Part shown: positions 6,448 to 23,691 of the stretch, piece after piece
Layout of the letters: each line of letters opens with the position of its first letter
Numbering within the stretch: the stretch's first letter is position 1
Assembly: GCF_000018305.1 (NCBI RefSeq)
Contig: NC_009954.1
Coordinates: 1,890,001-1,922,000 of the forward strand
Direction of reading: 5' to 3'
DNA: 32,000 bases
Source of the DNA: Caldivirga maquilingensis IC-167
GTDB taxonomy: Archaea; Thermoproteota; Thermoprotei; Thermoproteales; Thermocladiaceae
The notes under the pieces: generated by a model
Databases searched by the model: none
Told to the model about the DNA's origin: nothing
What the model saw: the letters and a program-made list of their open reading frames with translations, nothing else
Program-made: the position numbers and the translations under genes

Positions 6448-7515
6448 ATGATAATCGATGACACCTTAAGGGAGGGTTTGCAGGCACCTGGTATCTCATT
6501 CACTGTTGAGGAGAAGATCGAGTTAGCTAAATTAATCAGTAATGCTGGCGTAGATGAAGCCATTGTTTCCCACCCATCTGCACATGAGTCTGAGGTTGAG
6601 GTTACAAGGATCATTGTGGAAAGGAACTATTTTAAGTACGTGTTCGGCCTCGGTAGGGCATTAAAGGAGGATATTGATTTAATAGCGAGTACCGGTGCTA
6701 ATATCAGCACGTATATACCATTTGAGCCTCAATTGGTTAATAAATCCCTCGATGTCATTAAGTACGCCGTTAATACCTACGGTAAGGGTAAATTGATAAT
6801 TGAAGTGGGTATTACGAATATAACCGCTTATGAGTTAAGCAATATCGTTAAGTTAGCTAAGACCCTGGAGGAGCTGGGTGTCGATAGGATTCAACTTGCG
6901 GATTCCCTAGGTAAGGCCACGCCGAAACTCATGTACAATATTGTAAATAACGTGAAGCATACCGTAAAGATTCCAGTCAGCGTGCACTGCCATAATGATA
7001 TGGGTGCTGCGGTAGCTAACTCAATAAGTTCAGTATACGCTGGTGCTGATTATGTGGATGCAACAATCTACGGTATAGGTGAGAGGAATGGTATAGCCGA
7101 TTTAGCCACAATAGCCATGATACTGAGAAACGATAGTTACAGGATAAACATTGATTTCGAAAAACTTAGAGATGCATATAACTACTTAGCTAAATTAATA
7201 ATCGATAAGATTGATATCGAGTTCTTTAGAAATAATTTCCCAGTATTTGGTAATAATATATCTATACAAACCGCCGGCACACACGCAGCTTATCCAGGGG
7301 TATTTAAGGAGGTGGGGTATTCGCTTAATGTATACGTGGGTAGGTCCACATTACGTAAAGTGCTATCTGAACTCGGTATATCCCTTAACGATCAGGAATT
7401 ATTAATGCTCATGAGGAAGATTAAGGATACAGCCGTAAGGACAGGTAGAGCTGTAACTTATGACCAATTACTGCGACTCATCAATGAGATTAAGGGTGAG
7501 TTACATGGTTCTTGA
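6448..7515 (+). CDS. DRE-TIM metallolyase (HMG-CoA lyase, citramalyl-CoA lyase, or homocitrate/isopropylmalate synthase-like catalytic domain only)
   Basis: N-terminal 'IIDDTLREGLQ' (DxTLRDG-Q motif) and 'HCHNDMGAAVANSISSVYAGADYVDATIYGIGERNG'. At 355 aa it has no LeuA-type regulatory domain. Confidence 0.8.
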   Translation: MIIDDTLREGLQAPGISFTVEEKIELAKLISNAGVDEAIVSHPSAHESEVEVTRIIVERNYFKYVFGLGRALKEDIDLIASTGANISTYIPFEPQLVNKSLDVIKYAVNTYGKGKLIIEVGITNITAYELSNIVKLAKTLEELGVDRIQLADSLGKATPKLMYNIVNNVKHTVKIPVSVHCHNDMGAAVANSISSVYAGADYVDATIYGIGERNGIADLATIAMILRNDSYRINIDFEKLRDAYNYLAKLIIDKIDIEFFRNNFPVFGNNISIQTAGTHAAYPGVFKEVGYSLNVYVGRSTLRKVLSELGISLNDQELLMLMRKIKDTAVRTGRAVTYDQLLRLINEIKGELHGS

Positions 7516-8623
7516 GATAAAGCCCATAGTTCTTGAGCTTGGACAAATCGTAGCAGGACCCACAGCTGGATTGATACTCGCTGATCTAGGCTTCAACGTC
7601 ATAAAGATAGAGCAACCAGGTCGTGGGGACATAGCGAGATACCTTACTGGGCCTAGTGAGGGGCACTTTGCATTCTTTAACAGGGGTAAGAGGAGTATGA
7701 CCCTTAACCTGAAGACAGAGGAAGGTAGAGAGATATTTCTTAAATTAGTTAAGAGATCGGATATTATAATCGAGAATATGGGCTATGGCACCATGGAGAG
7801 ATTAGGCATTGGTTATTCCGTATTGAGTAAGATTAATCCAGGGATTATTTACTTATCCATAAAGGGCTACGGGAGTGGGCCATACGAGGACAGGAATGCA
7901 TTAGATTACCCAATTGAGATTGAGTCTGGGGTTGCTTATATGAATGGCTTAAGCAATAAGCCAATGAGGCTAGGGGCCTCCATCATAGATATTGCAGCGG
8001 CCATGTTTGGGGTAATTGGAGTACTTCATGCATTATTAGAGAGGGAGAGGACCGGTAAAGGCACATTCATTAAGATTGGATTGTTTGAGACAGCCATGTT
8101 CCTCATGGGCCAACACATAGCTGCTTACCAAGCCAGGGGATTTGTACCCCTGAAGCCTATGAATGAGGAGGGATTTGCATGGGCAATCTATGATTTCTTC
8201 GAGACAGCCGATGGTAAAAGAATATTCATAGCAATAACCACAGATGCCCAATGGCATAGATTCTGTGAACTCTTTAAACTACCCATATGCGAATCACCCG
8301 ACTACTCGACAAATGAGGCAAGATATCAACGTAGAAGTGAGCTCATACCTATGGTAGCAGAAGCCATAAGAAGGCTTCGTAGTGATGAGTTAATTCATGT
8401 GCTAAGGCAAAACGGTATCAGTTACGCCGTACTGAATACACCATGGGATTTATTGAATGATCCTCATGCATCCAAAAAATTAATCAGCATCAATTATAGA
8501 CAGAAACAGATTAAGGTACCAGTAACGCCATTAGAGAGTGATACAATACGATACAATGACGCGGATCCGCCTGAGCTTGGAGATAGCACGGAGATAATAC
8601 TTAAAGAGCTTGGTTATAGTTAA
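7505..8623 (+). CDS. Family III CoA-transferase (CaiB/BaiF/Frc family)
   Basis: 'VLELGQIVAGPTAGLILADLGFNVIKIEQPGRGDIAR' matches the family III N-terminal signature. I chose the ATG at 7505 ('MVLEIKP...'), which overlaps the upstream stop by 11 nt. The track ORF starts at 7460. Confidence 0.85.
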   Translation: MVLEIKPIVLELGQIVAGPTAGLILADLGFNVIKIEQPGRGDIARYLTGPSEGHFAFFNRGKRSMTLNLKTEEGREIFLKLVKRSDIIIENMGYGTMERLGIGYSVLSKINPGIIYLSIKGYGSGPYEDRNALDYPIEIESGVAYMNGLSNKPMRLGASIIDIAAAMFGVIGVLHALLERERTGKGTFIKIGLFETAMFLMGQHIAAYQARGFVPLKPMNEEGFAWAIYDFFETADGKRIFIAITTDAQWHRFCELFKLPICESPDYSTNEARYQRRSELIPMVAEAIRRLRSDELIHVLRQNGISYAVLNTPWDLLNDPHASKKLISINYRQKQIKVPVTPLESDTIRYNDADPPELGDSTEIILKELGYS

Positions 8624-8765: not shown

Positions 8766-9449
8766 ATGTATCTAGTTACTTTAAGGATTCACAGCGGGTG
8801 CGGACTAGCTATGGCCGCGAAGGTTGTGCAATCCCGCATTATATCAATAAATGCTTATCCAATTAATGATAAAATGAACATAGTGCTCGCACTTTTTAAG
8901 GTGGACAAAAAAGAGGATGATGTTATGGCTATTAGGTCATTAAAGAGGGATTTCTTAAAACTATCTAACTTATCGCTGCATGAGAATAATAACAAAAAGT
9001 ATTATGTTATTTCCGGTGTAAAAAGTGGTCATGGTGTGCTTTATCCACTGGTTAAGCATAATGCAATACCGTTATTGCCTTACATTGCATTGCCTAATGC
9101 TGAGTCCTTCATCTTCTTACATCACGATAAGAGTACCATAGACGACATCGTCGATGAAGTAAGTCATAAAAATAAACTGGAATATTTTGACTATAAAAGG
9201 ATAAGTAATGGAAATGATATAATGAGGATAATCACTAAAAACTTCAATGAAATATACCTCTACGATCTTGATGATTATGAGCGTAAGGTGCTGAAAATAG
9301 CTATCAATATGGGTTATTTCGATTGGCCTAAGCGTGTAAAAATAGATGAAATAGCTAGAGAATTGGGTGTTTCGAAACCCATGATTTCCTATTACCTTAG
9401 GAAGGCCAGTAGAAATATTTTTGACAAAATGGGGCTGAGGCGTTTCTAA
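8766..9449 (+). CDS. Transcriptional regulator with a C-terminal HTH_10 (bacterio-opsin activator-like) domain
   Basis: The C-terminus '[49 protein letters not shown]' matches the Bat-type HTH pattern (GYFD-xPR ... ela..lgis..t...hlr). I do not recognise the N-terminal about 165 aa. Confidence 0.7.
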
Positions 9450-10285
9450 TGAATACGGAGGCCCATGTTAAGGACGGCTTGCACTGGCTCTCATGCTTCA
9501 AGGCTCAGCAGGTGGCTGAGTTCTCACTAAGGTCAATACTAAGGGCGCTTGGGAGACCAGCCTTCGGGCACAACCTAGTGGCGTTCCTAAACGAGTTAGC
9601 GGGCATTTGCCCAGGGCTCACGACCGAGCTCAGGTTCTGTGTGGGTTACCTGGATAAGATGTACGTAAGTGGATTCAACTATGGCGATATTGAGAAGGCA
9701 CCGCCGCATAGGTTGGTTAAGGAGTACGGTGTTACCCACGAGAAGCTTTGGAATAACCTTAGGGAGTTCCTTGAGTATATAGTGCCAATTGCGGAGCAGA
9801 GTAATGTTAAGATAGCAATGCACCCCGATGATCCACCAATACCCGAGTTTAGGGGTATACCGAGGATCATGAATTCCATTGAGTCCTTTGAGAAACTACT
9901 GATCCTAGTCAGGAGTGATTATAATGGTATAACTCTATGTCAAGGAAACTTCACATTAATGACTGACGACCTACCAAGCGTCATTAAGAGGTTTAGGGAT
10001 AGGATATTCTTTGTGCATTTCAGGGATGTTAAAGGTGATAGGTATAATTTCGTGGAGACGTTGATAGGTGAGGGTAAGACGGACCTGGTGGGGGTCATGA
10101 GGGCGTACGTGGAGATTGGCTATAATGGTTACGTTAGGGTTGATCACACACCAACCCTTGAGAATGACGCAGAATTAGGTGCACCTGGTTATAACTACCT
10201 GGGTAGAATCTACACAATAGGTTATATTAAGGGCCTTTATGAAGCAGTTAAGAGGGAATTTAGTAAGGAGATATTAAATGCATAA
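9449..10285 (+). pseudogene. Chimeric ORF: a truncated HEPN core (about aa 1-72) fused in frame to the C-terminal two thirds of mannonate dehydratase (UxuA)
   Basis: HEPN part: '[34 protein letters not shown]...YLDKMYVS', with Rx4H in 'RPAFGH'. UxuA part: '[25 protein letters not shown]', 'FFVHFRDV', 'VRVDHTP...[10 protein letters not shown]'. This is collinear with E. coli UxuA from about residue 215 to the end, as recalled from memory. The UxuA N-terminal half is absent. Confidence 0.7.
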
Positions 10286-10327: not shown

Positions 10328-11685
10328 ATGGTTAAGGAGCAATTAATTAACGAGCTAAGGAAGCTCGGCATGACGTATGAGTTTGGTGAGAGGAGGGATT
10401 TCATAGGATTCCCTGTAAACCCCTGGTAATTGTTTATCCTCGTAATGAGCAGGACGTCATTGCCTTGGTGAAACTCGCTAATGAGTATAAGGTGCCTGTA
10501 ATACCGTGGGGTGCTGGGACAAGTCTCACTGGTGCGTTGTCATGTGATGGTTGCGTCTTAATTGATATGAAAATGATGAATAGTGTTCTCGAAGTTAATA
10601 CTGTTGATTGGTATGTTAGAGTTCAACCAGGGATAATCCTTGATAGACTTAACGAGGAACTTGCAAGGTACGGCTTCTTCTTCCCAGTGGATCCAGCGAG
10701 CCATTACATGTGCACTGTGGGGGGTATGATTGCAACTGGTGCTGGTGGAATGAGGGCTCTGAGGTACGGAACCATGAAGGACTGGGTCCTGGCGCTCAAG
10801 GTTGTTTTACCCATGGGTGAAGTTGCTCAATTCGGTGAACCACTGAGGAAGGATAGGGCAGGCTATGATCTGGTTCATCTATTCATCGGCAGTGAGGGTA
10901 CCCTTGGGATTATAACTGAGGCATGGCTTAGAATAATACCGATACCGAAGAAGTCATTCACCACGTTGCTAATAGGTATTGAAAATGAGGATGAACTTGG
11001 TAAGTTGGTGGTGAAGATTAGGGAGGGTGGCTTGTTACCTGAGTTGATGGAGTACATGGACTATTACTCAATAATGGCTGTTAATAAGGTATTCAATGGT
11101 AATTTACCTGAAGCACCTGGTGGATTATTGATTATTCGAATAGAGGGCGAGTACATGGACGACTTAATGAACATAGTGAAACATGTTGGATTGCAAAATG
11201 TTAAAACATTGGTAAGTGAAGAAGAGGCTAAGGAGGTTTTAATGCTTAGGTCAAGGGCTGGTGAGGCTATAAAGGCATTCTATGGGAACTTCTTCTCAGA
11301 GGATTTATCGCTACCTATCTCGAGGATTACTGATGCAATTAAGGAGGTGAGGAGGGTGGAGCGGATTATGGGGAAACCAATACCAATACTAGCACACATT
11401 GGTGATGGTAATATGCACCCGCACATACTTATTGAGCCAGGTAAGGAGGAAGAGGCAGATAGGGTATATGAGGAGCTTTGTAGAATAGCAATTAAGATTG
11501 GCGGTAGTATAACGGGGGAGCATGGTGTTGGGCTTCAAAAAGCCCGATTACTCTATGAGCAGTTTAAGTCACGTAATAACCTAAAGGCATTACTAATTAT
11601 GAGGAGGATCAAGGAGTTAATGGATCCAAACGATATAATGAACCCCAATAAATACGTAGAATTATCCTTAAAATATACGAATTAA
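10328..11685 (+). pseudogene. FAD-linked oxidase (GlcD / D-lactate dehydrogenase family) interrupted by a frameshift near 10405-10430
   Basis: A 33-aa ORF (10328-10429, 'MVKEQLINELRKLGMTYEFGERRDFIGFPVNPW*') looks like the family N-terminus. The FAD-binding domain continues in another frame from 10390 ('KPLVIVYPRNEQDVIALVKLANEYKVPVIPWGAGTSLTGA'). The C-terminal 'GEHGVGLQKARLL' is intact. The track ORF starts at a TTG (10465). Confidence 0.7.
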
Positions 11686-11938
11686 TACTCATGACATGCT
11701 TGGATTATACCTGCCATTCATGGCCTTCCTCTCATCATTCATGAATACGAGTACCACGGAACCAACCACATTATTAAACCTAATGACACAGTACCTAAAG
11801 GCCTTATTACCACCAACCCTATAAACAACTACCAAAATCTTAACACCGTCCATAACCCATAATACCGAGGAACCCTAATATAAATCCAGATAAGCTAGGT
11901 AATTCTTAAAAATTAAATAAAATATCTACTTGTCAGTT

Positions 11939-13042
11939 ATGGTTCATTTTGTTCTAAATAAGCAAGACGTTGAGGATTTAGTTGTTGGCGCCGCTATACT
12001 TGGTACCGGCGGTGGTGGCGATCCATATATTGGTAAATTAATGGTTCTTCAGGAATTAGAACGCGGTAGAAAAATCGAAGTTGTTAGTATCGACGAGATT
12101 GATGATGAGGCCTTCATAATACCCGTAGCCGCTATGGGAACGCCTGTAGTTCTAATGGAGAAGATACCCAGCGGCAAGGAGGCATTGTTCTCACTTAATT
12201 TATTAGAGAAGTACTTTAATAGAAAGGTGGACTTTATATCACCAATTGAGGCTGGTGGTGTTAATTCCACGATACCTCTTGTGGTGGCAGCAGAAAGGGG
12301 ATTGCTTGTTATTGATGCTGATGGTATGGGTAGGGCATTTCCCGAACTTCAAATGGTCACTTTTCACATATACGGAATAAAAGCAACACCAATGGCTCTT
12401 TCTGATGAACGTGGTAATGCAATTATACTTGATGCTATTGATAACTTCTGGGCTGAAAGGATAGCTAGAACTGTAACCGTTAGATTTGGTGGCTCTGCTT
12501 GGATAGCTATCTATCCAACTTATGGGAAACCATATAAAGATGCTGCTGTGAAGGGCAGTATATCATTTGCGATTGAAATAGGTAGAACACTAAGGGATGC
12601 AAAGATCACTGGCAAGAATCCAATTGATGCATTGCTAGATGTAACTAAGGGTTATGCCCTATTTAAAGGTAAGATCATTGATGTGCAAAGGTTTAATATA
12701 GGTGGTTTTGCAAGAGGTGAGGCTGTGATTGAAGGGCTCGATGAATATAAAGATTCAAAGATTACTATTAAATTTCAAAATGAAAATCTCGTAGCAATTA
12801 AGGATGGAGAGATTATAGCATCGGTACCCGATTTAATAACAGTACTTGATAGTGAAACCAGTAAACCCATAACCACAGAGAGACTTAGATATGGTTTAAG
12901 GGTTATCGTAATTGGTATACCGTGCAATGAAAAATGGAGAAATCCAAGAGGTCTAGAAGTTGTAGGGCCTAAGTACTTTGGTTATGACATTGATTATGTA
13001 CCCATTGAAATGAGAGTTAAGAAAATAGGTGGTGTGGCATGA
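11939..13042 (+). CDS. DUF917 family protein (Pfam PF06032-type, a usual partner of hydantoinase-like proteins)
   Basis: Characteristic N-terminal 'VVGAAILGTGGGGDPYIGKLM'. It overlaps the downstream HyuA-like gene by 4 nt (ATGA). The track ORF begins at TTG 11930, and the first ATG is 11939. Confidence 0.8.
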   Translation: MVHFVLNKQDVEDLVVGAAILGTGGGGDPYIGKLMVLQELERGRKIEVVSIDEIDDEAFIIPVAAMGTPVVLMEKIPSGKEALFSLNLLEKYFNRKVDFISPIEAGGVNSTIPLVVAAERGLLVIDADGMGRAFPELQMVTFHIYGIKATPMALSDERGNAIILDAIDNFWAERIARTVTVRFGGSAWIAIYPTYGKPYKDAAVKGSISFAIEIGRTLRDAKITGKNPIDALLDVTKGYALFKGKIIDVQRFNIGGFARGEAVIEGLDEYKDSKITIKFQNENLVAIKDGEIIASVPDLITVLDSETSKPITTERLRYGLRVIVIGIPCNEKWRNPRGLEVVGPKYFGYDIDYVPIEMRVKKIGGVA

Positions 13043-14610
13043 CAAAGTACAAGATTGGTATTGATGTTGGTAGCACACATACAGATGCTGTGATACTTGA
13101 TGAAAATAATAATTTAATATATGCTGCTAAAACCATGACTACACCCGATGTTACATCAGGAATAATTAATGCATTAAAACTTATTCTTGAAAACTCCGGT
13201 ATTAGTAAAGATGATGTTGTAGCCGTAATGTTTGGAACTACGCACGTTATTAATGCAATAGTTCAAAGGAGAAATCTTGGCAGAGTCGGAGTAATTAGAA
13301 TCGGATTACCCGCTACTGAGGCTATAGTGCCTATGCTTGACTGGCCAAGTGATCTTAAAAATGCTATTCTAGCGAGTTCATACATGGTTAAGGGTGGTCA
13401 TGATTATACTGGCGAGCCTATTACTAATTTTGACGATAATAACATCAAAAGGATACTTAAGAATTTTACAGAAAAGGGAGTAGACGCTGTAGCGATTACA
13501 TCTGTATGGTCTATAGTTAATCCTGAACATGAAAATAAAGTTCTCGACATTGCTAAGGAGACTATGCCTAATACACCGATTGTTTTATCACATGAAATAG
13601 GTTCAATAGGACTTTTAGAAAGAGAAAACGCAACAATACTTAATGCCGCTACAATTAATGTCATGAAAAATGCCATTAATTCCCTTAAGAGCGCACTCAA
13701 TAGCATGGGATTAAGCCACGTTAAAATGTTTTTTGCACAGAATGATGGAACAACAGCCTCTGCTGACTATATAATGAGGTTCCCTATATTCACTGTCATA
13801 GCACCTATATCAAATAGTATACGCGGTGCCTATGTCTTAACAGGAATACCAAATGCTATAGTTGCTGATACTGGTGGCACAACAACAAACATAGGCGCAC
13901 TCGTTAATGGCTATCCACGTGAAGCCCTAGAAGTAGAGATTGGGGGTGTTAGAACAAATATTAGGGCGCCCGATATAATCGCCATAGGATTGGCAGGCGG
14001 TAGTATTGTTAGAGTCGAAGGCAATGATGTGAAGATAGGGCCTGTCAGTGTTGGGTATAGATTAATTTATGAAGGTATTGCATGGGGTGGTGAGACAATA
14101 ACGGCCACTGATATAGCACTTGCAAAGGGTGTTATGGTAATAGATGATCCACAATGTAAATCAGAACTTGCCAAAGCTAAGATACCTCAGTGGTTAGTTG
14201 AAAAAGCCTATGATAAGATGGTTAAGATGCTAGAGGATGCTCTAGATAAAATAAAGACAAGGCCAGAGCCTGAAACTGTGATTCTGGTAGGTGGAGGATC
14301 TGCCATGTGGCCAAGAAGATTAAAGGGTGCTAAGGAGGTTATTAGACCCGATAATGCACAATACGCAAATGCCATAGGTGCAGCAACAGCATTAGTAGGT
14401 GCAACAGTAGAGAAAGCGTATTCTTATGAAAAAACCTCTAGAAGTGATGCTATTAATGATGCATCTAAAGAAGCCATTCTACGAGCAATACAGGCCGGTG
14501 CCGATCCAGCTACCGTAGAGATTGCCGAAGTTGAAGAAATAGCAATGCCATATTTACCAGGAAATGCTGTTAAGGTTAGGGTTAAAGCTGTTGGTAAATT
14601 GAAAATTTAA
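13039..14610 (+). CDS. Hydantoinase/oxoprolinase family protein (HyuA-like, ASKHA fold)
   Basis: N-terminal 'IGIDVGSTHTDAVILD', 'VMFGTTHVINAIVQR', and 'ADTGGTTTNIG' (second phosphate-binding motif). 523 aa. Confidence 0.85.
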   Translation: MTKYKIGIDVGSTHTDAVILDENNNLIYAAKTMTTPDVTSGIINALKLILENSGISKDDVVAVMFGTTHVINAIVQRRNLGRVGVIRIGLPATEAIVPMLDWPSDLKNAILASSYMVKGGHDYTGEPITNFDDNNIKRILKNFTEKGVDAVAITSVWSIVNPEHENKVLDIAKETMPNTPIVLSHEIGSIGLLERENATILNAATINVMKNAINSLKSALNSMGLSHVKMFFAQNDGTTASADYIMRFPIFTVIAPISNSIRGAYVLTGIPNAIVADTGGTTTNIGALVNGYPREALEVEIGGVRTNIRAPDIIAIGLAGGSIVRVEGNDVKIGPVSVGYRLIYEGIAWGGETITATDIALAKGVMVIDDPQCKSELAKAKIPQWLVEKAYDKMVKMLEDALDKIKTRPEPETVILVGGGSAMWPRRLKGAKEVIRPDNAQYANAIGAATALVGATVEKAYSYEKTSRSDAINDASKEAILRAIQAGADPATVEIAEVEEIAMPYLPGNAVKVRVKAVGKLKI

Positions 14611-15560
14611 GACGAATCACCTAAACCTCTTCTCATGATTTCACTTAATTCGCCATAAGTGTTTTTTAAAATGTTCCATTCATTTTCATCATAAAACTTC
14701 ATCTTACCTGTAGTAAATTCATAAGCAACCTCTAATATGAATCGTGATGCTTGATCCAGTGATATTAAATTTGTGACGTTAGTAGCAGAGCCTGGTATTA
14801 CTGTTTCCGTAGTAATGGCAACACCAACTACAGGTGATTTCGTGAATAACCATGGTTGTACTATACTGTTTATATGATAAACAGGTACCGTAAATGGTAT
14901 TATATCCTGCATAGTTAACGGTACAATGATGGGGGTTCTACCAGTTACATTCATGTATATTTTTATCAAGTCAGGGCTTACCTTCAATATCCATCCCTCC
15001 TTAACAGTTGGTGTTATCGCGAAACCTAAATTCTTAACAACTAAATTAGCCTTTGTGGCATCAACACTTAGTATTGCATCCATTTCAGGTTTAACCTCTC
15101 TCCTTAAAATTTCAAATAAATTAATAGGGCTTCTTATTAATGGTGCAGGTTCATGCGGTATTACTATGGCATTGGGGCAAATATTAGTCGTTATGATAAC
15201 ATCCCCGGGTAATGCATCACCCCTACGGGCCATCTCTGCTATTTTATAAGCAACAGCTAATGCTGTAATTACACCATCTGCATCAGAAACAAGCCCTTTA
15301 ATTGTTGGTCTAGCACTAATACCACCAGCTCTGCCAGTAATACCCAGTGTTGGTGCTGTCCCACCTAATTTTTTACCTTGTGCGCCTGGTATTAAAATAG
15401 TTACCAAGTCAACAGAACCATCATTACCTTTAATGGTTTCAACATCAACCCTTAAGTAATTAGAATATTTTGCTTCAAGGAAATCCTTGACTCTATAGCC
15501 ATCAATTTTAGGATCTTCTAAAATATCAATTACCTCTATTAAGTATTTAACCATTGACAT
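14607..15560 (-). CDS. DUF1177-like conserved protein. The family assignment is from memory of gene-neighbourhood partners and is tentative. The maximal ORF extends to 15587.
   Basis: Long clean ORF. I prefer the start at 15560 ('MSMVKYL') because 'ctttttat' on the minus strand (plus 15586-15593) ends 25 nt upstream. The 15587 start would leave only 14 nt to the divergent gene. Confidence 0.6.
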   Translation of the reverse strand: MSMVKYLIEVIDILEDPKIDGYRVKDFLEAKYSNYLRVDVETIKGNDGSVDLVTILIPGAQGKKLGGTAPTLGITGRAGGISARPTIKGLVSDADGVITALAVAYKIAEMARRGDALPGDVIITTNICPNAIVIPHEPAPLIRSPINLFEILRREVKPEMDAILSVDATKANLVVKNLGFAITPTVKEGWILKVSPDLIKIYMNVTGRTPIIVPLTMQDIIPFTVPVYHINSIVQPWLFTKSPVVGVAITTETVIPGSATNVTNLISLDQASRFILEVAYEFTTGKMKFYDENEWNILKNTYGELSEIMRRGLGDSS

Positions 15561-15601
15561 TAAGAAAGACTTTAATTTCAGCGGCATAAAAAGATTACCA
15601 C
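15561..15601. promoter_or_regulatory. Compact bidirectional promoter with interdigitated TATA boxes
   Basis: Plus-strand 'ctttaattt' (15569-15577) lies about 24 nt before the ATG at 15602. Minus-strand 'ctttttat' (15586-15593) lies 25 nt before the ATG at 15560. Confidence 0.35.
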
Positions 15602-16273
15602 ATGACGCGCGACATTAAGGTGGGATTCATAACCATAGGGCAATCACCAAGAACTGACATAATACCAGAAATAATGCCCATTCTCGGTAATAATATAAAA
15701 ATAATAGAATGCGGTGCACTAGACGATTTATCCTTAAACGAAATCAAAAAATTAGCACCTAAGGATAATGATTACATACTCGTTACTAGATTAAGAGATG
15801 GTACCCAAGTAATGCTTAGCAGGAGTAAAATAATTGACTTAATGCAAAAATGTATTGAAAAACTGGAAAAAGATGTTAATTTAATAGGATTATTATGTAC
15901 AGGTGATTTTCCAGAACTTAAGTCTAATATTTTAATGATCGAACCATCTAAATTAACAATGAATGTTGTTAAATCTATGAATGTTAAAAAACTAGGTATT
16001 TTTGTACCTGATAAATCTCAAATTAACTTAATAAAAAATAGATGGTTAAATATAGTTAATGATGTAACTGTAGTTTCATCATCAGCTTACATAAATACTA
16101 TTGATAAATTTAAAGAATTATCAAAACAATTAATTGATACCGATTTAATCGTGCTTGATTCATTTGGATATTCCATAACAATTAAGAAAACGGTTGCTGA
16201 AATTACAAAGAAACCTATAATATTACCTAGAACACTCCTTGTGCGAGTAATTAAAGAATTATTAGAAATCTGA
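15602..16273 (+). CDS. AroM family protein (Asp/Glu/hydantoin racemase-like fold)
   Basis: Collinear with E. coli AroM as recalled from memory. 'VGFITIGQSPRTDIIPEI' matches 'ILTIGVVPMQEVLP'. 'MIEPSKLTMNVVKSM...LGIFVP' matches 'FLEPSRILPPLVSSI..VGVIVP'. 'DLIVLDSFGY' matches 'DVIMLDCLGF'. 'PIILPRTLLVRVIKELL' matches 'PVLLSNVLIARLAAELL'. Confidence 0.7.
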   Translation: MTRDIKVGFITIGQSPRTDIIPEIMPILGNNIKIIECGALDDLSLNEIKKLAPKDNDYILVTRLRDGTQVMLSRSKIIDLMQKCIEKLEKDVNLIGLLCTGDFPELKSNILMIEPSKLTMNVVKSMNVKKLGIFVPDKSQINLIKNRWLNIVNDVTVVSSSAYINTIDKFKELSKQLIDTDLIVLDSFGYSITIKKTVAEITKKPIILPRTLLVRVIKELLEI

Positions 16274-16318
16274 TAAATATAATATTTAAAATGGATTAAT
16301 AATTTTAACTAATATTAC

Positions 16319-16687
16319 TTATAATCTTAATATATTAATCTTACTTCTCCATGCAAGATATAAATCAATTATCCACAGTGCCGTTACTATACTCGTAACA
16401 GTCAATTCAAGCGGCTTAACAGGATTATTCATAAACGGTGATACTTGGATCGCTATATAAGCAGTAATTATGGATATTACTAACCAAGCATCTGCGATAA
16501 TCCTGCTTACTTGGTTTTTCCAGGAGAAGTATATACTCATTAATGAAGTTATAAGCATGAATAATGTCGCTGCCAATGTATGGTACATGGCATAAATATT
16601 GACATTATATTTTAACACTGCAAGTAAAATTACTGAAAATACTAATTGAATTATCGCAAAGTATAAACTTAATCTTGAAAAGTTCAT
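16319..16687 (-). CDS. Small integral membrane protein (about 4 TM helices), translationally coupled to the permease
   Basis: 122 aa with four hydrophobic stretches. Its start overlaps the permease stop by 4 nt (16684-16687). Confidence 0.6.
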   Translation of the reverse strand: MNFSRLSLYFAIIQLVFSVILLAVLKYNVNIYAMYHTLAATLFMLITSLMSIYFSWKNQVSRIIADAWLVISIITAYIAIQVSPFMNNPVKPLELTVTSIVTALWIIDLYLAWRSKINILRL

Positions 16688-18051
16688 TTCACAACACCTC
16701 CCATGTACACATACTTACCTAATTCGTACTTAATTTCTGTCCTCTTGAAGGCATACGCTAATATTACATGTACAATAAATGCAACAAGAATAGCATTAAT
16801 TGCTGCTATACCAACAGTTAAGAAGAAGCCAGCAAGAGCACCCGCAGCAAATGATAATATACCAGTGAGATTAAGTTCAGGGTACTCCTTACCTGGTATT
16901 AATTTAAATCTCTCAAAGGGATTCTTAACACCTTCTAGATAAGGTTTTACGATGAAAAACTCTGCAAATACAGAACCACCAGCAGCTGGTAGTAAGGAAC
17001 CCAGTACAGTTATAAAACTCTCAAAAGGTGCTAACGAAGCGCCAGCTGTATAACCCCAATATGCCGCTAATAATGTACCTATAATACCTACTATTATTGA
17101 GGAATAATCCCTTCTGATAGGTATTGCATTCGTAAAGCTTAAACTACCGCTGTATAGATTCACTGTATTTATTATCCACTGCCCCAGAACTATTATCAAA
17201 AGTATACCAAGGCCCATACCTAATTTAAGCATATCCTCAGTGATAATTACACTACCAGTAAGCAGTACTATGGCAACAGCACCAAGTATTAAAAATGGAT
17301 AAAACACAAACATATGTAACACCCATGCAACAACAGAATCCCTCGGTCTTTTCGCAAACCTAGTAATATCTGGTGCTATTAATGAACCAGCTATGTACAA
17401 GCCTACCGTAGCCGTAATTGCATCAGCCAGCGACATATGAGACTTAGGAACAGCAGTCCATACGGCACCCCAACCACCATGTAATGAAATAGCAAGAAAA
17501 AGCCCAACTGCAATCAACCATACATGCTGTGGAAGTATGAAATAACTAAGGAATGATAAAGCCCTGTAACCTATATAGGTAGAGAGTATCATTAAAGCAC
17601 CACCCCATAATGCAGCCGCCCATACGGAGAAGAAAGGATTATTGGGATATATCTCATTCATAACAACACCAAAGAACCAGCTCTCAACAGCAAACCAACC
17701 AATTCCAGTTGTTATCGTTATTAACGCAAACCCTAATAATTTACCACCAACTCTACCAAAGGGTAATCTCCAGCCAACATATGTTGACAAACCAGAATAC
17801 GCACCAATAACACCAGATAAAGCACCAATTATAGATAAAATTATATTACCAACCATCACGGCTATTATTGCATTAGTAAAGTTAAGACCACCACCAAGAA
17901 CACCACCAGCAAATAAAACCGCTATGGCACCAAACGATGCACTTAATGTCAAGAACACATTATACAAACCATACCTCTCAACAATAGGCACCTCCTCAAT
18001 CGAGTAGTCATCAAATATGAACCGCCTTTGCCTCCTAGGTTCTCCTGCCAT
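16684..18051 (-). CDS. NCS1 family permease (CodB-like cytosine/purine/hydantoin-type transporter)
   Basis: 'FAGGVLGGGLNFTNAIIAVMVGNIILSIIGALSGVIGAYSGLSTYVGWRLPFGRVGG...GIGWFAVE' is collinear with E. coli CodB 'WTGGTLGTGLSYHDFFLAVLIGNLLLGIYTSFLGYIGAKTGLTTHLLARFSFGVKGS...QVGWFGVG', as recalled from memory. The TATA-like 'ttaaaaat' lies about 22 nt upstream of the ATG. Confidence 0.8.
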   Translation of the reverse strand: MAGEPRRQRRFIFDDYSIEEVPIVERYGLYNVFLTLSASFGAIAVLFAGGVLGGGLNFTNAIIAVMVGNIILSIIGALSGVIGAYSGLSTYVGWRLPFGRVGGKLLGFALITITTGIGWFAVESWFFGVVMNEIYPNNPFFSVWAAALWGGALMILSTYIGYRALSFLSYFILPQHVWLIAVGLFLAISLHGGWGAVWTAVPKSHMSLADAITATVGLYIAGSLIAPDITRFAKRPRDSVVAWVLHMFVFYPFLILGAVAIVLLTGSVIITEDMLKLGMGLGILLIIVLGQWIINTVNLYSGSLSFTNAIPIRRDYSSIIVGIIGTLLAAYWGYTAGASLAPFESFITVLGSLLPAAGGSVFAEFFIVKPYLEGVKNPFERFKLIPGKEYPELNLTGILSFAAGALAGFFLTVGIAAINAILVAFIVHVILAYAFKRTEIKYELGKYVYMGGVVK

Positions 18052-18502
18052 AGCAATACTATATAGTTTATGTATTTTTAAGCATTTCTCTACTTCATGA
18101 ACAGTTAGTGGTAGGTTTGTTTTTCTATCCTTATATGTTAACTGGCTTTAGCATTGGGTGGGAGATTACTGGGTAATTTCACTGCTTGGCAAAGGCCTTA
18201 GTAATTGTCCTCCGGCTGATTCTTAATGCATATGAATGATACTTTAATTATTTTGATTAACTTATTCATGTTAAGTATTATTCTTTACTTCCTTGAAAAC
18301 TTAATGTACATGCAGTTGGCATCCATGGTTACGTGGGTTCAGGAATCAGCGGTATCATCAGTTATCAGGGCTGCAAACCATCATCACTTACTACTAGTAC
18401 TTATGCATGCTTATTAAATAATTCACCTGCCTCAACTTGATTAACCATTAATTAGAATGATAGTAGGCACGGTTGCTGTGAATTATCCCATTATTAAGGG
18501 AG

Positions 18503-19333
18503 TTATTTTAAGTAGTCGAGTATTGAGTTATTCCTACGTCTACTCCTCCACTCATCCTCCTCAGTAATGCAGTTAACGCCGTAGCTATCGCAGAGTTGTG
18601 TTAATTCGCCTACTACTCTTCTCCACCAATTATTTGTTGGCACTGGGTTAATGTTTAATTTAGTCCTCATTAATCTTACTGCTGTTTCCCTTGGCCTAAA
18701 CCTGTCTATTATTAATTGACTGTTAGTCTCCTTGGCTAATCTAATTATTGGCTCGTAATTGAGCCTTGAGTCATTTATGCCTGGTATTATTGGGCCTAGG
18801 AATATCCATGTTTTTACACCAGCTTTAGCAAGCTTCCTAATGGTCATTGCCCTAACCAACGGTGGTGGTGTGTTTGGTTCAATTAACTTATATGAATCAC
18901 TCATTGTTGTTATCGTTAAGCCAACATCAGCCATTTCACCGCATTGTTTAAGAACATCAATATCCCTAATCACTAGGGCTGACTTGGTTTGAACACTAAC
19001 ATGGAATCCTGAATCGCAAAGTAGGCTTAAGGCCCTTCTACTGAGCCTATACTTTGATTCAATGGGTTGATAGGGGTCTGTTATTGTTGATAAACCAACA
19101 ACACCTCTCCTAAGCCCCTTAACCTCACTGCTGAGTACTTCAATTAAATTAACCTTAACATACACGACCTCACCCCACTTAATGGCTGGTTCCCCCTTGG
19201 TGAAGTCCCTTGCATAACAGTATATGCAACCATGCTGGCAGCCTAAGTATGGGTTGAGGGCGTAGTCGTACTCGGGTAGGCCGGATTTACTTAGGGCTTT
19301 CTTAACCTTAATCTCCTTAACTATGATACTCAT
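18503..19333 (-). CDS. Radical SAM protein of the SplB/'DNA repair photolyase'-like group (COG1533 type)
   Basis: 'NPYLGCQHGCIYCYA' contains the CxxxCxxC 4Fe-4S/SAM motif at the position typical of this group. It overlaps the upstream Nre gene by 4 nt (ATGA). Confidence 0.85.
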   Translation of the reverse strand: MSIIVKEIKVKKALSKSGLPEYDYALNPYLGCQHGCIYCYARDFTKGEPAIKWGEVVYVKVNLIEVLSSEVKGLRRGVVGLSTITDPYQPIESKYRLSRRALSLLCDSGFHVSVQTKSALVIRDIDVLKQCGEMADVGLTITTMSDSYKLIEPNTPPPLVRAMTIRKLAKAGVKTWIFLGPIIPGINDSRLNYEPIIRLAKETNSQLIIDRFRPRETAVRLMRTKLNINPVPTNNWWRRVVGELTQLCDSYGVNCITEEDEWRSRRRNNSILDYLK

Positions 19334-20550
19334 AGTAATCTAGCCTCCCTTAACCTCCTCAATACGTAGGATCTTGAGGCCCATTGAGCCAGCGGTAGTT
19401 TAAGTTGACTTGAGGCGAATTTAAGCGCCTCATCAAGGCTACTGAAGCTGACGTAGCTACCCTTAAACATGGCTCTAACATTCTCCCTAACGAACCAAAC
19501 ACCCACAGGTATATTGAAGCCTGGGTAAATCTCCCTCCAGAGAATTACGGCTGCCTGCCTATGCATACTATGAAGCGCCTCTGCTGCAGCTAACCTGGCT
19601 GCGTAGTAGCATCCACCGATGCTTGGGTAGGTGTCCCTACCCCAGTAGCCTTCACTATCGATTTCAATCACTGGTTCACTTCCCCAGGTGTTCCAAGTGC
19701 TCCCAGGCCACCATGCCTCACCCCACTCGTATAGCCAGGTGTGTGGGGCTAGTATGCCTATGAATAGGTTATTGTTACTCCTCCTGACGTAAACCCTGTA
19801 CTCGCTTAACTCAGGGTAATTCTTAACCTCATTGATTAACCTACTTGAAACCTCCTCATCAACCGCAGTTATAGACCACCTAGTGGGTACGAGTCTCCTA
19901 GCCCTACCCCTACCTATGGCGCCTACGCTCATTAACCTTGAGATAACGTGCACATCAATGCCTGAGTTATAAAGCATCCAAACGGCATCATTAGCCTTTA
20001 AATCCACGTCGGAGTAAGCCTTCTCCACAGCCCTGCTTGGTTGAGGTATTGTGGATAATTTAATGCTTCTCAATGGGGCTGAGGGGCCTATTGGTGGTTC
20101 CTGTTCATTTAAGGTTACATTACCTTTAATTGGCTTAGCCAGCGTTAACTCAGTGTCCACGGGTCCGCTTGAAATAGCCATTACCTGTATGTCGTGGAGT
20201 TGCCTAGGTGGGTTCCTTGGGTCATTAACCTTGAAGATTACTGACCCCCTGATTAACGTGAGTCTACTTGATAGGAAGTCCTCAAGCCTCATGCTTAACC
20301 ATGTCCTCGGTTCCTCAAGCCAACCTGTGTCCCCATGAGTGGGTGGTGTGGCTGGGTAGACTCTAACCTTAGGGTAACCTAATCTACCAACCATGATGCT
20401 TGGGGGTGAGGAGCCGTTAACATCCTGCCTACCCTCAAGGGGCTTAATCCTCCTAAGTGTCCAATTATTCACTAGTATTGGGCAGTACGCTAACCCGCAT
20501 AGGTTATACTCCCCACGGCATTTAATGCATAGTTCAGGGTTAATCCGCAC
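19330..20550 (-). CDS. Archaeal Nre family protein (DUF650/DUF651, putative DNA repair factor). GTG start.
   Basis: N-terminal Cys cluster 'LCIKCRGEYNLCGLAYCPIL' and C-terminal 'IGGCYYAARLAAAEAL...PVGVWFVRENVR' match the conserved Nre blocks as recalled from memory. Confidence 0.7.
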   Translation of the reverse strand: MRINPELCIKCRGEYNLCGLAYCPILVNNWTLRRIKPLEGRQDVNGSSPPSIMVGRLGYPKVRVYPATPPTHGDTGWLEEPRTWLSMRLEDFLSSRLTLIRGSVIFKVNDPRNPPRQLHDIQVMAISSGPVDTELTLAKPIKGNVTLNEQEPPIGPSAPLRSIKLSTIPQPSRAVEKAYSDVDLKANDAVWMLYNSGIDVHVISRLMSVGAIGRGRARRLVPTRWSITAVDEEVSSRLINEVKNYPELSEYRVYVRRSNNNLFIGILAPHTWLYEWGEAWWPGSTWNTWGSEPVIEIDSEGYWGRDTYPSIGGCYYAARLAAAEALHSMHRQAAVILWREIYPGFNIPVGVWFVRENVRAMFKGSYVSFSSLDEALKFASSQLKLPLAQWASRSYVLRRLREARLL

Positions 20551-20575
20551 TACGCATTAGATGGTGCTTAGGATG

Positions 20576-20584
20576 GTTAAATAC
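20576..20584 (-). promoter_or_regulatory. TATA-like box for the Nre/radical-SAM operon
   Basis: Minus-strand 'gtatttaac' lies about 26 nt upstream of the GTG at 20550, inside the 80-nt gap after the uL5 stop. Confidence 0.35.
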
Positions 20585-20630
20585 CTTTCACTCAATGAGT
20601 ATACTTACTTAACTTAATTAGGGTAATTAC

Positions 20631-21227
20631 CTAGCGTTTAAGTATCCTGACTCCTAATACGTCTTGGAAGAACCTAATGGTCTCCTCCCTACTTACCCTA
20701 TGATCCTTACCCACGTCTGCCCTTGCCCTACGCCTATACTGAACCCTGAACCCGGGTCTAGCTAGGGTTACTGCAACATCGAAGCCAAATATGCCTAATG
20801 CTGGGTCATACCTAGAGCCGGGTACAAGTATGTGCTCCCTAATACCGAAGCTTACGTTACCTGCATTGAAGCTCTCCTCCCTAAGCGTGAAGTCAACCGC
20901 CGCCAGGGCCCTTAGTAGGAACCAGACGGCTTCATTCCTCCTTAAGGTGACTAATAGGCCTATTGGCTCACCTCTCCTTATTCCGAAGTCCTTAATTGAC
21001 TTATGGGCAAGCCTATAGGATGGTGTCCTCCCAGTTAACTCAGACATAACCTTAGCGGCCTTCTCAAGCCTCTCACCACTCTGCCCAATCCCCATATTCA
21101 CAGCCACACTCCATATGAATATCCTTCTCATTGGGTGACCTGTATCAAGTGTGAACTTCCTCCAATCCAGGTCACTGGGTTTTATTGCCCTTAAATCAAT
21201 GGTTGATAGGTCAATGGCCGGCATCAC
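20631..21227 (-). CDS. rpl5: 50S ribosomal protein uL5 (L5)
   Basis: 'VNMGIGQSGERLEKAAKVMSELTGRTPSY..AHKSIKDFGIRRGEPIGLLVTLRRNEA' and 'FNAGNVSFGIREHILVPGSRYDPALGIFGFDV'. Confidence 0.95.
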   Translation of the reverse strand: MMPAIDLSTIDLRAIKPSDLDWRKFTLDTGHPMRRIFIWSVAVNMGIGQSGERLEKAAKVMSELTGRTPSYRLAHKSIKDFGIRRGEPIGLLVTLRRNEAVWFLLRALAAVDFTLREESFNAGNVSFGIREHILVPGSRYDPALGIFGFDVAVTLARPGFRVQYRRRARADVGKDHRVSREETIRFFQDVLGVRILKR

Positions 21228-21937
21228 TCAGTCACCTTCACCACTGGTGATTCCTTACCGATAACGAGTAGGTAGTTTAATACCGTCCTGAACTCAGAGT
21301 CCTTAGCCTTAACCGTGGCTATGGCGTCCCTCTTCCTAAACGACCTAACCCAATTAATTAAAGTACCGTGCCTCCCCACGTTAACACCGTTGAAGGCTAT
21401 TACGTATTGGTTAGGCTGCATTGGGTAGTAATCCATTAACTTACCGTCCTCAAGATTAACCACAACGCTCCCAAGCGTCTCATACTTCCTACCCTCATCC
21501 TGGTCAACAATTATGTTCCTCCCATCATGTAGGTTTAACTGAATCTTACCTGCCTTAACCATGGTCTTATCCTCAATCCTACACACCTTTACGCCTGCCT
21601 CAGACTTATCAATCCTAATAGGCCTTAGGAAGTTAACTGGATCAGGTATAATCCTGTAGTACTCGTTTATTGGCGTTAACTCAATAACATCCATTAAGCC
21701 GACTGGGTACTTGTAATCCCTCCTGACCTTACCATCAACCTTAACATACCCCTTACCTATTATTAACCTAGCCTCCCTAAGGGTCTTAGCGTAGTGGAAT
21801 ACATCCCTAAGAAGCACCGCGAGGGGTATGCTTGAGTTAGCCGGGTGGGGTCCTGGGCTTGGTTTAATTGACCACGGCGCCCCCTTCCTCTCCACAGGCC
21901 ACCATTCAGGTGATGTTGATCTCCTTAAATGCGTCAT
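21224..21937 (-). CDS. rps4e: 30S ribosomal protein eS4 (S4e)
   Basis: '[31 protein letters not shown]' is the typical S4e N-terminus. The gene has 4-nt overlaps with both neighbours. Confidence 0.95.
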
Positions 21938-22365
21938 GATTGACCACCCTGCTGTGGTGTTATAACCTCCCTAACACCCGCCTTAGCCTCCCTAGCCTTC
22001 CTAGTCTTATCAATTGCAGCAACCCTAGCCTTATCGCTTTGATCAAGCTCCACGATAACTACCTTAGATGGGTGTATTGGGTAGTACACAGCCTCACCAC
22101 TGGGTTTCTTAAATGAAGCCGAGTCAACGTATATCCTCACTCTCTTATAATCAACCCTAGTCACCTTACCCCTAGTACCCTTAAAGTCCCCCCTCAGTAT
22201 TAGCACGGTATCCCCAACCCTAACAGGTATCCTCCTTATACCCAACTGCCTCTGAAGATCCTTAGATAATGGTGCAGTCAATAACCTACGCCTAGCATGC
22301 CAAGGCGCCTTAGTAAGCGCCTTATGCTGCTTCCTGGGTTGACTCGATGATGTTAACACAGGCAT
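21934..22365 (-). CDS. rpl24: 50S ribosomal protein uL24 (L24)
   Basis: '[47 protein letters not shown]' (KOW motif). Confidence 0.95.
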
Positions 22366-23243: not shown

Positions 23244-23615
23244 CGTTAAATGGGAATTAACCCAATAATTTTAATTCACCATTAACTCTGCTGTAAGCCT
23301 CATTCATAAACTCCAGCCATAACTAATGTAATCCCTAAAGAACCCTACCAACAATAAGCCTCATAGCCTTAACATAATCACCCACAATGCACCTCCTTAA
23401 AGACCTCTAAGACTTAGTACAGTGGATTGTACATGAAGTCGACATAAGCCTTATCATATTGCATGGCTTAAAGCCCGCATAGTAAATCCCTTAACCATAC
23501 ACCCACTGGACTTAATCATGCTGATTAAGCCAATAGTAATTCATGTACTGTAGTATGTTTAATTTCAGGGAATAGGGCAGTAATGGAGAGGAGTGTAGGG
23601 GGAGCCATACCTTAG

Positions 23616-23691
23616 CGGGCCCGCCGGGATTTGAACCCGGGTCCTACGGCTCCGGAGGCCGCCGCTCTAATCCATGCTGAGCTACGGGCCC
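23616..23691 (-). tRNA. tRNA-Arg (anticodon CCG), no intron, CCA not encoded
   Basis: The reverse complement folds as a cloverleaf: acceptor GGGCCCG/CGGGCCC, D arm GCTC..GAGC, anticodon stem GCGGC/GCCGT with loop CTCCGGA, T arm CCGGG-TTCAAAT-CCCGG, discriminator G. Confidence 0.9.

Follow-up and report, generated by a model that had tools for sequence, protein, structure and literature searches.

Classical bacterial hyu clusters encode four functions, with an NCS1 hydantoin permease (Mhp1 or HyuP) for uptake, a hydantoinase, a racemase specific to hydantoins and, from the M20 family, an N-carbamoyl-amino-acid amidohydrolase. Here, we analyze a block of six genes in the archaeon Caldivirga maquilingensis IC-167 that encodes, in this order, a DUF917 protein, a short HyuA-like ATPase, a DUF1177 protein, an AroM protein, a small membrane protein and an NCS1 permease. 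The block lies in a stretch of 32,000 nt (NC_009954.1, positions 1,890,001 to 1,922,000), henceforth referred to as the window, to which all coordinates refer; its DUF917, HyuA-like and DUF1177 proteins are 100% identical to matches on the 2.08-Mb IC-167 chromosome. A preliminary description had read the six genes as a single, hydantoin-type system. We find that the block joins two independently conserved modules, one consisting of the NCS1 permease, the small open reading frame (ORF), DUF917 and the short HyuA, the other of DUF1177 and AroM. On balance, we put the probability at about 0.5 that this is a foreign, probably horizontally acquired island in which both modules act together in the breakdown of a small cyclic amide that originates from peptides or amino acids.

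Compared with the hyu clusters, the block fills four slots with the NCS1 permease, with AroM as a member of the racemase superfamily, with the HyuA-like protein as a member of the hydantoinase family and, at the level of fold only, with DUF1177 as a Zn-exopeptidase-like protein. It differs, however, in that the permease is CodB-like rather than Mhp1-like, AroM has a single catalytic cysteine, and DUF1177 shows no sequence relation to M20. Moreover, the candidate for ring opening is the short HyuA together with DUF917; there is neither a dihydropyrimidinase-type enzyme nor a HyuA/HyuB pair.

In HyuA/HyuB lactamases, the lactam is first phosphorylated by the A subunit, and the intermediate formed in this way is then hydrolysed by the B subunit (PMC6061476). 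Like the HyuA/HyuB enzymes in general (OplAB, N-methylhydantoinase, CapAB and the acetone and acetophenone carboxylases), the block encodes a protein with Hydant_A_N and Hydantoinase_A domains and ASKHA motifs, and the gene of its partner is adjacent, with an overlapping junction. On the other hand, the short HyuA is ∼160 aa shorter than the full-length proteins (∼680 aa) and lacks the Hydant_A_C domain, and its partner is DUF917, which has an unrelated fold, instead of HyuB. With the thiohydantoin desulfurases, the DUF917 protein shares both Pfam domains and a series of motifs (a G-rich loop followed by D, DxDGxGRAxP, (F/W)xNE and PDLI), but it belongs to a separate, HyuA-paired subfamily.

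In Escherichia coli, aroM is part of an aroL-yaiA-aroM operon and its function is unknown. The AroM protein of the block passes the cut-off of the corresponding model PRK10481 and the permease aligns fully with CodB (7qoa), while the genomic context is different and the permease, which scores under the CodB cut-off, has an extra small transmembrane partner. Finally, cyclodipeptide-oxidase gene clusters lacking a cyclodipeptide synthase are enriched in PF01177 racemases, DUF917, AroM, ABC and OPT peptide transporters and peptidases (bioRxiv 10.1101/2023.09.25.559410). The same families, together with nitroreductase-family genes, surround DUF1177 and DUF917 in the loci studied here, although genes for nitroreductases or oxidases are missing from the block itself. 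The preprint assigns no function and does not mention DUF1177, the short HyuA as a partner or the pair of NCS1 and small ORF (bioRxiv 10.1101/2023.09.25.559410). The family annotations of the genes and the association of DUF917, AroM, racemases, peptide transporters and peptidases are thus already known, making the block a lead rather than a surprise.

All six ORFs are located where the preliminary description had placed them, and every domain call it contained held in hidden Markov model searches, far above the Pfam gathering thresholds. The first gene encodes the DUF917 protein (11939-13042, forward strand; 367 aa, WP_012186860.1); although its longest ORF opens with TTG at 11930, the ATG at 11939 is the more likely start. 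The protein matches S-Me-THD_N (PF06032) with 202.5 bits and S-Me-THD_C (PF20906) with 255.9 bits (cut-offs 27), DUF917 having been renamed S-Me-THD-like in Pfam. The only named DUF917 members in NCBIfam are thiohydantoin desulfurase (NF058529) and S-methyl-thiohydantoin desulfurase (NF058532). The literature searched contained no enzymology of DUF917 proteins or thiohydantoin desulfurases, so the link to thiohydantoins comes from the NCBIfam and Pfam names only.

The gene of the short HyuA-like ATPase (13039-14610, forward strand; 523 aa, WP_012186861.1) follows with a 4-nt overlap that proved genuine (ATGA at 13039-13042). Hydant_A_N is matched with 140.6 bits and Hydantoinase_A with 89.4 bits, the latter over profile positions 1-173 of 291 only, and the 523 aa contain no Pfam match to Hydant_A_C (PF19278), a domain that full-length HyuA proteins in a Vulcanisaeta (L002) and a Saccharolobus (L081) locus do carry. 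Relatives in the Protein Data Bank (PDB) include 5l9w, the nearest being N-methylhydantoinase (7hk5) and oxoprolinase (6yra). The ATP-binding motifs of the ASKHA fold (D9xGxTxTD16, D277xGGT282 and G418GG420) are invariant among 15 homologs with 51-81% identity.

We compared 80 metagenomic loci anchored on the DUF917 subfamily of the window. Where at least 2 kb of sequence was available on either side, the short HyuA gene adjoins DUF917 without exception (42 of 42 loci). The pair is found in either order (29 vs 24), with junctions mostly between −8 and +30 nt. HyuB is encoded in only five of the 80 loci and absent from the other 75. In line with this, the absence of a HyuB partner noted in the preliminary description extends to the entire window, in which no Hydantoinase_B domain is encoded. 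Pairing of DUF917 with the short HyuA is therefore obligate in this subfamily, and HyuB is usually lacking; the two proteins may form a complex. An apparent in-frame fusion of HyuA and DUF917 on a 2.6-kb soil metagenome contig (L137, 2-1837) was discounted as a Rosetta-stone case, since an Arg-rich, frame-shifted stretch in its HyuA part means that it may be a sequencing artefact. In the Vulcanisaeta locus L002, the short HyuA gene (13896-15474) is split into parts of 322 aa and 182 aa, reflecting a frameshift or pseudogene, or else an assembly error.

The NCS1 permease gene (16684-18051, reverse strand; 455 aa, WP_012186864.1) matches Transp_cyt_pur (PF02133) with 71.9 bits vs a cut-off of 23.5. 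Its only solved relative is CodB (7qoa; 2e-29), with an end-to-end alignment, and on the NCBIfam cytosine permease model NF008241 it reaches 189 bits, below the cut-off of 326. The gene is coupled at its stop codon to the small membrane ORF (16319-16687, reverse strand; 122 aa, WP_156769895.1, 'hypothetical protein' in RefSeq) by a 4-nt overlap, also genuine (TCAT at 16684-16687). The predicted product has three to four transmembrane segments and no match in Pfam or NCBIfam. A broad family could not be upheld for this ORF, as phmmer returned only five representatives at E ≤ 1e-3 among 1.84 billion, and distant homology emerges only from profile and position combined.

Nevertheless, position is highly informative within one NCS1 subclade. 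Nine loci have an NCS1 protein at least 33% identical to that of the window, and all of them have an ORF of 122-139 aa with three to four transmembrane segments directly after it, at a spacing of −3 to +24 nt; among DUF917-HyuA loci with a more distant NCS1 gene, all 16 lack a small transmembrane ORF at this place. Examples are found in L081 (6580-6966) and L083 (4992-5399), as well as in L085, L086 and L101. Additionally, when 4736 background ORFs were scored with a profile of the Caldivirga-type small ORFs, the first four ranks went to four of the five positional analogs, which come from Saccharolobus, Ignisphaera and two metagenomic loci. To our knowledge, NCS1 transporters are otherwise single-subunit proteins. 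From sequence and position, the small ORF may encode a partner that is dedicated to a single NCS1 subclade and evolves fast, perhaps an accessory subunit.

In the DUF917-anchored set, NCS1 is found within 5 kb in 12 of 25 loci. The quartet of NCS1, small ORF, DUF917 and HyuA stands alone in Saccharolobus and Ignisphaera, while Thermococcus has a trio of DUF917, HyuA and NCS1 without the small ORF. Trios of permease, DUF917 and hydantoinase have also been reported from Clostridioides difficile, where they are co-regulated, and from L. rhamnosus. Other recurrent neighbours of the DUF917-HyuA pair are Opp/Dpp ABC transporters, PF01177 racemases, nitroreductases, a sigma-54 activator and a polysaccharide-deacetylase-family gene.

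Some of these loci have further features of their own. A full-length HyuA/HyuB pair and an AsnC/Lrp regulator adjoin the quartet in Saccharolobus (L081, 584-10605) and Vulcanisaeta (L002, 1503-15474), and the Saccharolobus locus has a second DUF917 paralog, convergent with the quartet. In Thermococcus atlanticus (L082, 1-12000), an AsnC-DUF917-HyuA-NCS1-racemase array adjoins PxpABC-type 5-oxoprolinase genes (LamB_YcsF, CT_C_D and CT_A_B), and the same locus holds Nramp transporter and AMDase-like racemase-superfamily genes. This gene content hints at a local concentration of lactam metabolism.

The second module is formed by DUF1177 (14607-15560, reverse strand, longest ORF to 15587; 317 aa, WP_048062805.1) and AroM (15602-16273, forward strand; 223 aa, WP_012186863.1), inverted relative to each other in the window. 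DUF1177 (PF06675) is matched with 412.5 bits vs a cut-off of 25. Its AlphaFold2 model (pLDDT 80, pTM 0.86) resembles M17 leucyl aminopeptidases, the M28 Streptomyces aminopeptidase and the catalytic domain of M20 DapE (8svm, 1qq9 and 4h2k; Foldseek E = 1.8e-9 to 3e-8, TM-score ∼0.5, ∼10% identity). DUF1177 is thus predicted to adopt a Zn-exopeptidase-like fold, the fold class of the L-carbamoylases. AroM passes the cut-offs of both Pfam PF07302 (263.6 bits vs 23.8) and NCBIfam PRK10481 (235.8 bits vs 198), and it is a member of the Asp/Glu/hydantoin-racemase superfamily.

From 285 relatives of DUF1177, mostly of Thermoproteota, Nitrososphaeria or Bathyarchaeia with a few from Bacillota, we compiled 80 species-representative loci. 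AroM accompanies DUF1177 in 47 of them and, where at least 8 kb of flank is available on both sides, lies within 8 kb in 22 of 32. A DUF917-family gene is present in 33 of the 80 loci, whereas the short HyuA, NCS1 and the small ORF each occur in only two. This DUF917 gene represents a sister subfamily, 22-28% identical to the protein of the window and without HyuA; with the thiohydantoin desulfurase model, a stand-alone copy that neighbours DUF1177 in other archaea reaches 308 bits. A typical cluster reads OPT< DUF1177> Asp/Glu-racemase> DUF917-like> AroM> M29-peptidase> nitroreductase>, with an Opp/Dpp ABC transporter as a variant in place of OPT, and in Bacilli the arrangement is Opp-DUF1177-M20-M29. 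Elsewhere, the neighbours of this module are thus peptide uptake systems and peptidases rather than hydantoin genes, which does not support the hydantoin-type pathway of the preliminary description as stated. Opp/Dpp, OPT, racemases, nitroreductases and M29 peptidases are neighbours of both modules.

The DUF1177/AroM module is also found on plasmids. A conjugative plasmid of Klebsiella pneumoniae (L168, NZ_CP057460.1, 174946-180353) carries an IclR-OPT-DUF1177-AroM-PepE-Asp/Glu racemase cassette bracketed by IS66, IS110 and IS5 elements, indicating that the module is mobile in enterobacteria. A plasmid of the haloarchaeon Salinigranum encodes ABC-DUF917-DUF1177-AroM-aminopeptidase-racemase-aspartoacylase-family-Lrp.

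These neighbourhoods suggest an alternative in which the substrate is an unusual linear peptide, for instance one with D-amino acids or with isoaspartyl or acidic residues, that is processed by DUF1177, AroM and the racemases, while DUF917-HyuA performs some other ATP-dependent step on this peptide or a product of it and no cyclic amide is involved. Such a role would agree with the dominance of OPT or Opp/Dpp transporters and of M20, M29, S33 and PepE-type peptidases around DUF1177, with the PepE and aspartoacylase-family genes that accompany DUF1177, AroM and racemase on plasmids, and with the aminopeptidase-like fold of DUF1177 itself. We nonetheless regard it as unlikely: the window and its closest relatives use NCS1, a family of transporters for small heterocycles, instead of a peptide transporter, the HyuA family is known for activation of lactams and ketones, not of linear peptides, and thiohydantoin rings are the substrates of those DUF917 proteins that have a name in NCBIfam.

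Regarding the connection between the two modules, the four enzymes stay adjacent in three different arrangements within the Caldivirga/Vulcanisaeta lineage. The loci compared are a Vulcanisaeta metagenome-assembled genome (L002), Caldivirga sp. MU80 (L006) and the metagenomic relatives L084 and L164-L166. Besides the order of the window, we found AroM> DUF1177> small< NCS1< DUF917> HyuA> (L002, L006 and L084) and Opp-ATPase> AroM> DUF1177> DUF917> HyuA> (L166). DUF1177 further occurs in eight of the 80 independent DUF917-HyuA loci, human-gut contigs among them, and in L167, DUF1177 and AroM lie beside a full HyuA/HyuB pair. In Vulcanisaeta, the locus continues into HyuB and full-length HyuA, AsnC, an MFS transporter, a racemase and an S33-type hydrolase. 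Taken together, the three arrangements, the recurrence in eight loci, L167 and the Vulcanisaeta extension argue that the two modules are probably linked, recurrently though not universally. The single six-gene system of the preliminary description has thus to be replaced by two modules that are recurrently linked but do not form one conserved unit.

Alternatively, the modules may be functionally unrelated, having become neighbours merely by arriving or accumulating in the same variable or foreign region. Each module is indeed conserved alone in most genomes, as reflected by the low counts given above (HyuA and NCS1 in two of 80 DUF1177 loci, DUF1177 in eight of 80 DUF917-HyuA loci). In addition, DUF1177 and AroM of the window are 10-15 identity points further from their relatives than these are among themselves, a degree of divergence that sets them apart from the other four genes; DUF917, HyuA and NCS1 display no such extra divergence. 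The DUF1177-AroM pair may accordingly have evolved faster or have had a history that was in part its own. A chance neighbourhood is nevertheless improbable in our view, given that the four enzymes remain adjacent through three rearrangements, that the linkage recurs in unrelated bacterial contigs, that the usual partner of DUF1177 and AroM is another DUF917 subfamily, and that all six genes in the window have a common shift in third-position composition.

This compositional shift was evaluated using the other 23 genes of the window as baseline. The line counts on which the preliminary description had based its claim of an AT-rich island (17/60 and 16/60 G+C inside the block, 31/60 in core genes) are all exact, and sliding-window and codon-position analyses revealed a stronger shift than it had reported. 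Overall G+C content is 0.368 in the block vs 0.429 for the window outside it (Mann-Whitney test on 60-nt bins, p = 3e-12). The G+C content at third codon positions (GC3) ranges from 0.205 to 0.301 in the six block genes vs 0.381 to 0.538 in the 23 others, a complete separation without overlap that has an exact rank probability of 2e-6. By gene, GC3 is 0.288 for DUF917, 0.245 for DUF1177, 0.205 for AroM and 0.287 for NCS1. AroM is the most AT-rich gene of the block (G+C 0.284), and the deepest trough (0.28-0.30) is limited to AroM, the small ORF and the spacer between them. The edges of the compositional island coincide exactly with the six genes.

The orthologous blocks in L002, L006, L084 and L164-L166 are not AT-shifted; their GC3 values of 0.40-0.59 match those of their own flanks, and the shift is therefore specific to the C. 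maquilingensis copy. Furthermore, none of the genes that flank the block in the window adjoin it in L002 or L006. Judging from composition and synteny, recent acquisition from an unsampled donor of lower G+C content is probably the simplest reading. As to the horizontal acquisition put forward in the preliminary description, the compositional discontinuity that coincides with the block stands in its favour, whereas hallmarks of mobility are missing.

A cyclic-amide route through the block might proceed as follows. The CodB-like NCS1 symporter, together with its dedicated small partner with four transmembrane segments, would import the compound. The short HyuA would then activate the ring amide with ATP as an O-phospho-lactim, after the model of the A subunits of oxoprolinase, N-methylhydantoinase and caprolactamase. 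DUF917, taking the place of HyuB, would direct water onto the activated ring carbon, in analogy to the reaction implied by the NCBIfam names of DUF917 members, in which sulfide or methanethiol is displaced hydrolytically at C2 of a thiohydantoin. AroM, with its one cysteine, would adjust the stereochemistry of substrate or product, and free amino acids would finally be released by DUF1177 from the linear product, which could be a dipeptide or an N-carbamoyl or N-acyl amino acid. We infer each of these catalytic steps, as well as the role of the small membrane protein, from family membership and gene context.

As substrates, 5-substituted hydantoins and 2,5-diketopiperazines appear about equally likely, since, given the context of peptide transporters, peptidases and nitroreductases common to both modules, a ring of peptide origin, with a 2,5-diketopiperazine as the best candidate, is no less plausible than a hydantoin. 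The link to cyclic amides made in the preliminary description hence remains plausible and is the best-supported reading, in view of the NCBIfam names of DUF917, the ATP motifs of HyuA and the fold class of DUF1177, but not in its original form of a one-system hydantoin pathway.

A bolder version of this proposal is that DUF917 and the short HyuA constitute a new two-component ATP-dependent cyclic-amide hydrolase, in which DUF917 hydrolyses the phospho-lactim and which is fed by a two-subunit NCS1 transporter. DUF1177 would in that case be a new metallo-exopeptidase and AroM a one-thiol racemase-like enzyme, the entire set serving the salvage of cyclic dipeptides or hydantoins that arise spontaneously from peptides in the heat. 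We consider this version possible and put it forward only tentatively.

Diketopiperazine rings form readily at high temperature. The enzymes of their catabolism are largely unknown (PMC3852281). If the cyclic-amide reading is true, the block would contain a new type of ATP-dependent lactamase and could contain long-missing enzymes of diketopiperazine or hydantoin turnover, of relevance to thermophile physiology and biocatalysis. The uncharacterised families DUF917 and DUF1177 have thousands of members, the range of AroM extends from archaea to Firmicutes and to plasmids of enterobacteria, and the short HyuA is widespread. In place of a six-gene system, there are now two modules with handles, namely the DUF917-HyuA pair, an exopeptidase-fold DUF1177 and an NCS1 subclade with a private partner.

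Several observations weigh against a cyclic-amide route encoded by an acquired island. The co-conservation of all six genes implied by the preliminary description was not borne out, the full set being restricted to Caldivirga and Vulcanisaeta, that is, to one archaeal family. At the level of individual enzymes, the DUF917 protein of the window fails the NF058529 and NF058532 models (106 and 104 bits vs cut-offs of 440 and 450). Its AlphaFold2 model (pLDDT 86) yields a Foldseek match only to the uncharacterised PDB entry 2o3i (E = 3e-22, TM-score 0.76), so that DUF917 was rejected as a HyuB analogue by fold and a HyuB-like role is an analogy only.

For DUF1177, phmmer and profile hmmsearch found no relative in the PDB, hhalign gave a probability of ∼1% against the M20 and M29 profiles, amounting to no sequence-profile relation, and nothing relevant to the family was found in the literature. 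Its invariant residues (D102, D104, H135, C137, D176 and H238) are candidate metal ligands, yet they could not be superposed on known ones. AroM resembles the racemases in superfamily membership, as had been proposed, but the second racemase cysteine is absent: C99 is the sole invariant cysteine among 47 AroM proteins, whereas the co-occurring PF01177 racemases (family c3) keep both, C81 and C180.

As for acquisition, no low-GC donor was found among the close relatives, and the island borders show no integrase, insertion sequence or other mobility gene, no meaningful flanking repeats, no Rfam matches and no tRNA, the sole tRNA of the window being located at 23615-23691.

Weak Pfam matches at the N-terminal ASKHA domain of the short HyuA, to BcrAD_BadFG (33.5 bits, just over the cut-off) and MutL (27 bits), likewise count against the route, as they imply that the protein could be a chaperone-like ATPase. 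It would then be an ATP-dependent activase or reactivase of DUF917, comparable to HgdC/BcrAD or to GlmL/MutL-type proteins, with DUF917 as the sole catalyst. That the sister DUF917 subfamily occurs without HyuA fits this explanation, because it indicates that DUF917 can be catalytic alone. However, the strongest matches by far are those to Hydant_A_N and Hydantoinase_A and to solved ATP-dependent lactamases and carboxylases, and the N-terminal matches span a generic phosphate-binding motif only, which makes an activase role clearly unlikely.

The permease raises a different objection. The preliminary description had invoked the hydantoin transporter Mhp1, but Mhp1 was undetected among PDB chains at E ≤ 1e-3 and the permease is CodB-like. 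Given that its nearest solved and curated relatives are cytosine permeases, and that a PucR-family regulator adjoins a DUF917 gene in Eubacterium limosum, the block might instead serve nucleobase salvage or catabolism, with uptake and conversion of cytosine or of another pyrimidine- or purine-derived ring. This option is very improbable. The permease misses the cytosine-permease cut-off by the margin given above and belongs to a subclade defined by the small transmembrane partner, peptide transporters occupy the transporter slot in relatives, and the window encodes no deaminase or other gene of a pyrimidine or purine pathway.

Further junctions and putative promoters concern the transcription of the block. 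The HyuA and DUF1177 genes are convergent and overlap by 4 nt. Between DUF1177 and AroM, the 41-nt divergent spacer described earlier (15561-15601) holds, since DUF1177 starts at the ATG at 15560, which is the RefSeq start and matches the starts of homologs; the bidirectional promoter assigned to this spacer is a putative one, suggested by two crossed TATA-like boxes read from the sequence (TTTAATTT at 15572-15579 and, on the reverse strand, TTTTTATG at 15586-15593). On the forward strand, a TATA-like box (ttaaaaattaaataaaata, 11906-11924) precedes the start codon of DUF917 by ∼15-33 nt and may serve as archaeal promoter for a leaderless DUF917-HyuA transcript, and another on the reverse strand (cttaaaaatacataaac, 18066-18082) lies ∼15-30 nt upstream of the NCS1 start codon.

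All four transcription units thus have an A/T-rich, TATA-like box ∼15-30 nt 5' of their start codon. The boxes would fit leaderless archaeal transcription, but they are weak evidence, such strings being common in AT-rich DNA. A scan for bacterial promoters and terminators, irrelevant for an archaeon, gave 32 sigma-70-like sites vs 30.4 in shuffled sequence. The convergent spacer between AroM and the small ORF (16274-16318; 45 nt, 9% G+C), with a palindrome (I5) at its edge at 16322-16343, is likely a termination zone for both transcripts. In the public records, ABW02641-ABW02645 cover the proteins of the block except the 122-aa ORF, which is skipped in the consecutive GenBank protein numbers of IC-167 and is found in RefSeq only.

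On both sides, the block is flanked by archaeal genes. One flank is a metabolic set of HMGL-like, CoA-transferase III, HTH_10 regulator and FAD-oxidase genes, and the other consists of core genes (radical-SAM, Nre, ribosomal L5, S4e and L24, SufBCD and 5S rRNA). Immediately left of the island, the FAD-linked oxidase gene (10465-11685, forward strand) has a TTG start and matches FAD_binding_4 from profile position 17. The start may have been misassigned or the N-terminus truncated, which could be related to insertion of the island. Further upstream, an ORF at 9449-10285 (forward strand) combines an N-terminal HEPN domain (residues 7-83) with only the C-terminal half of D-mannonate dehydratase UxuA (profile positions 174-351 of 352). 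Its first base is also the last base of the preceding HTH_10 regulator gene, a 1-nt overlap. The ORF is either an unusual fusion or what is left of a gene that was disrupted. The longest ORFs of the HMGL-like (6448-7515) and CoA-transferase III (7460-8623) genes overlap by 56 nt (7460-7515), and the true start of the latter is probably further downstream. On the other side, the radical-SAM and Nre genes (18503-22365, reverse strand) are located directly downstream of L24, S4e and L5 on the same strand and overlap each other by 4 nt, an unusual pairing.

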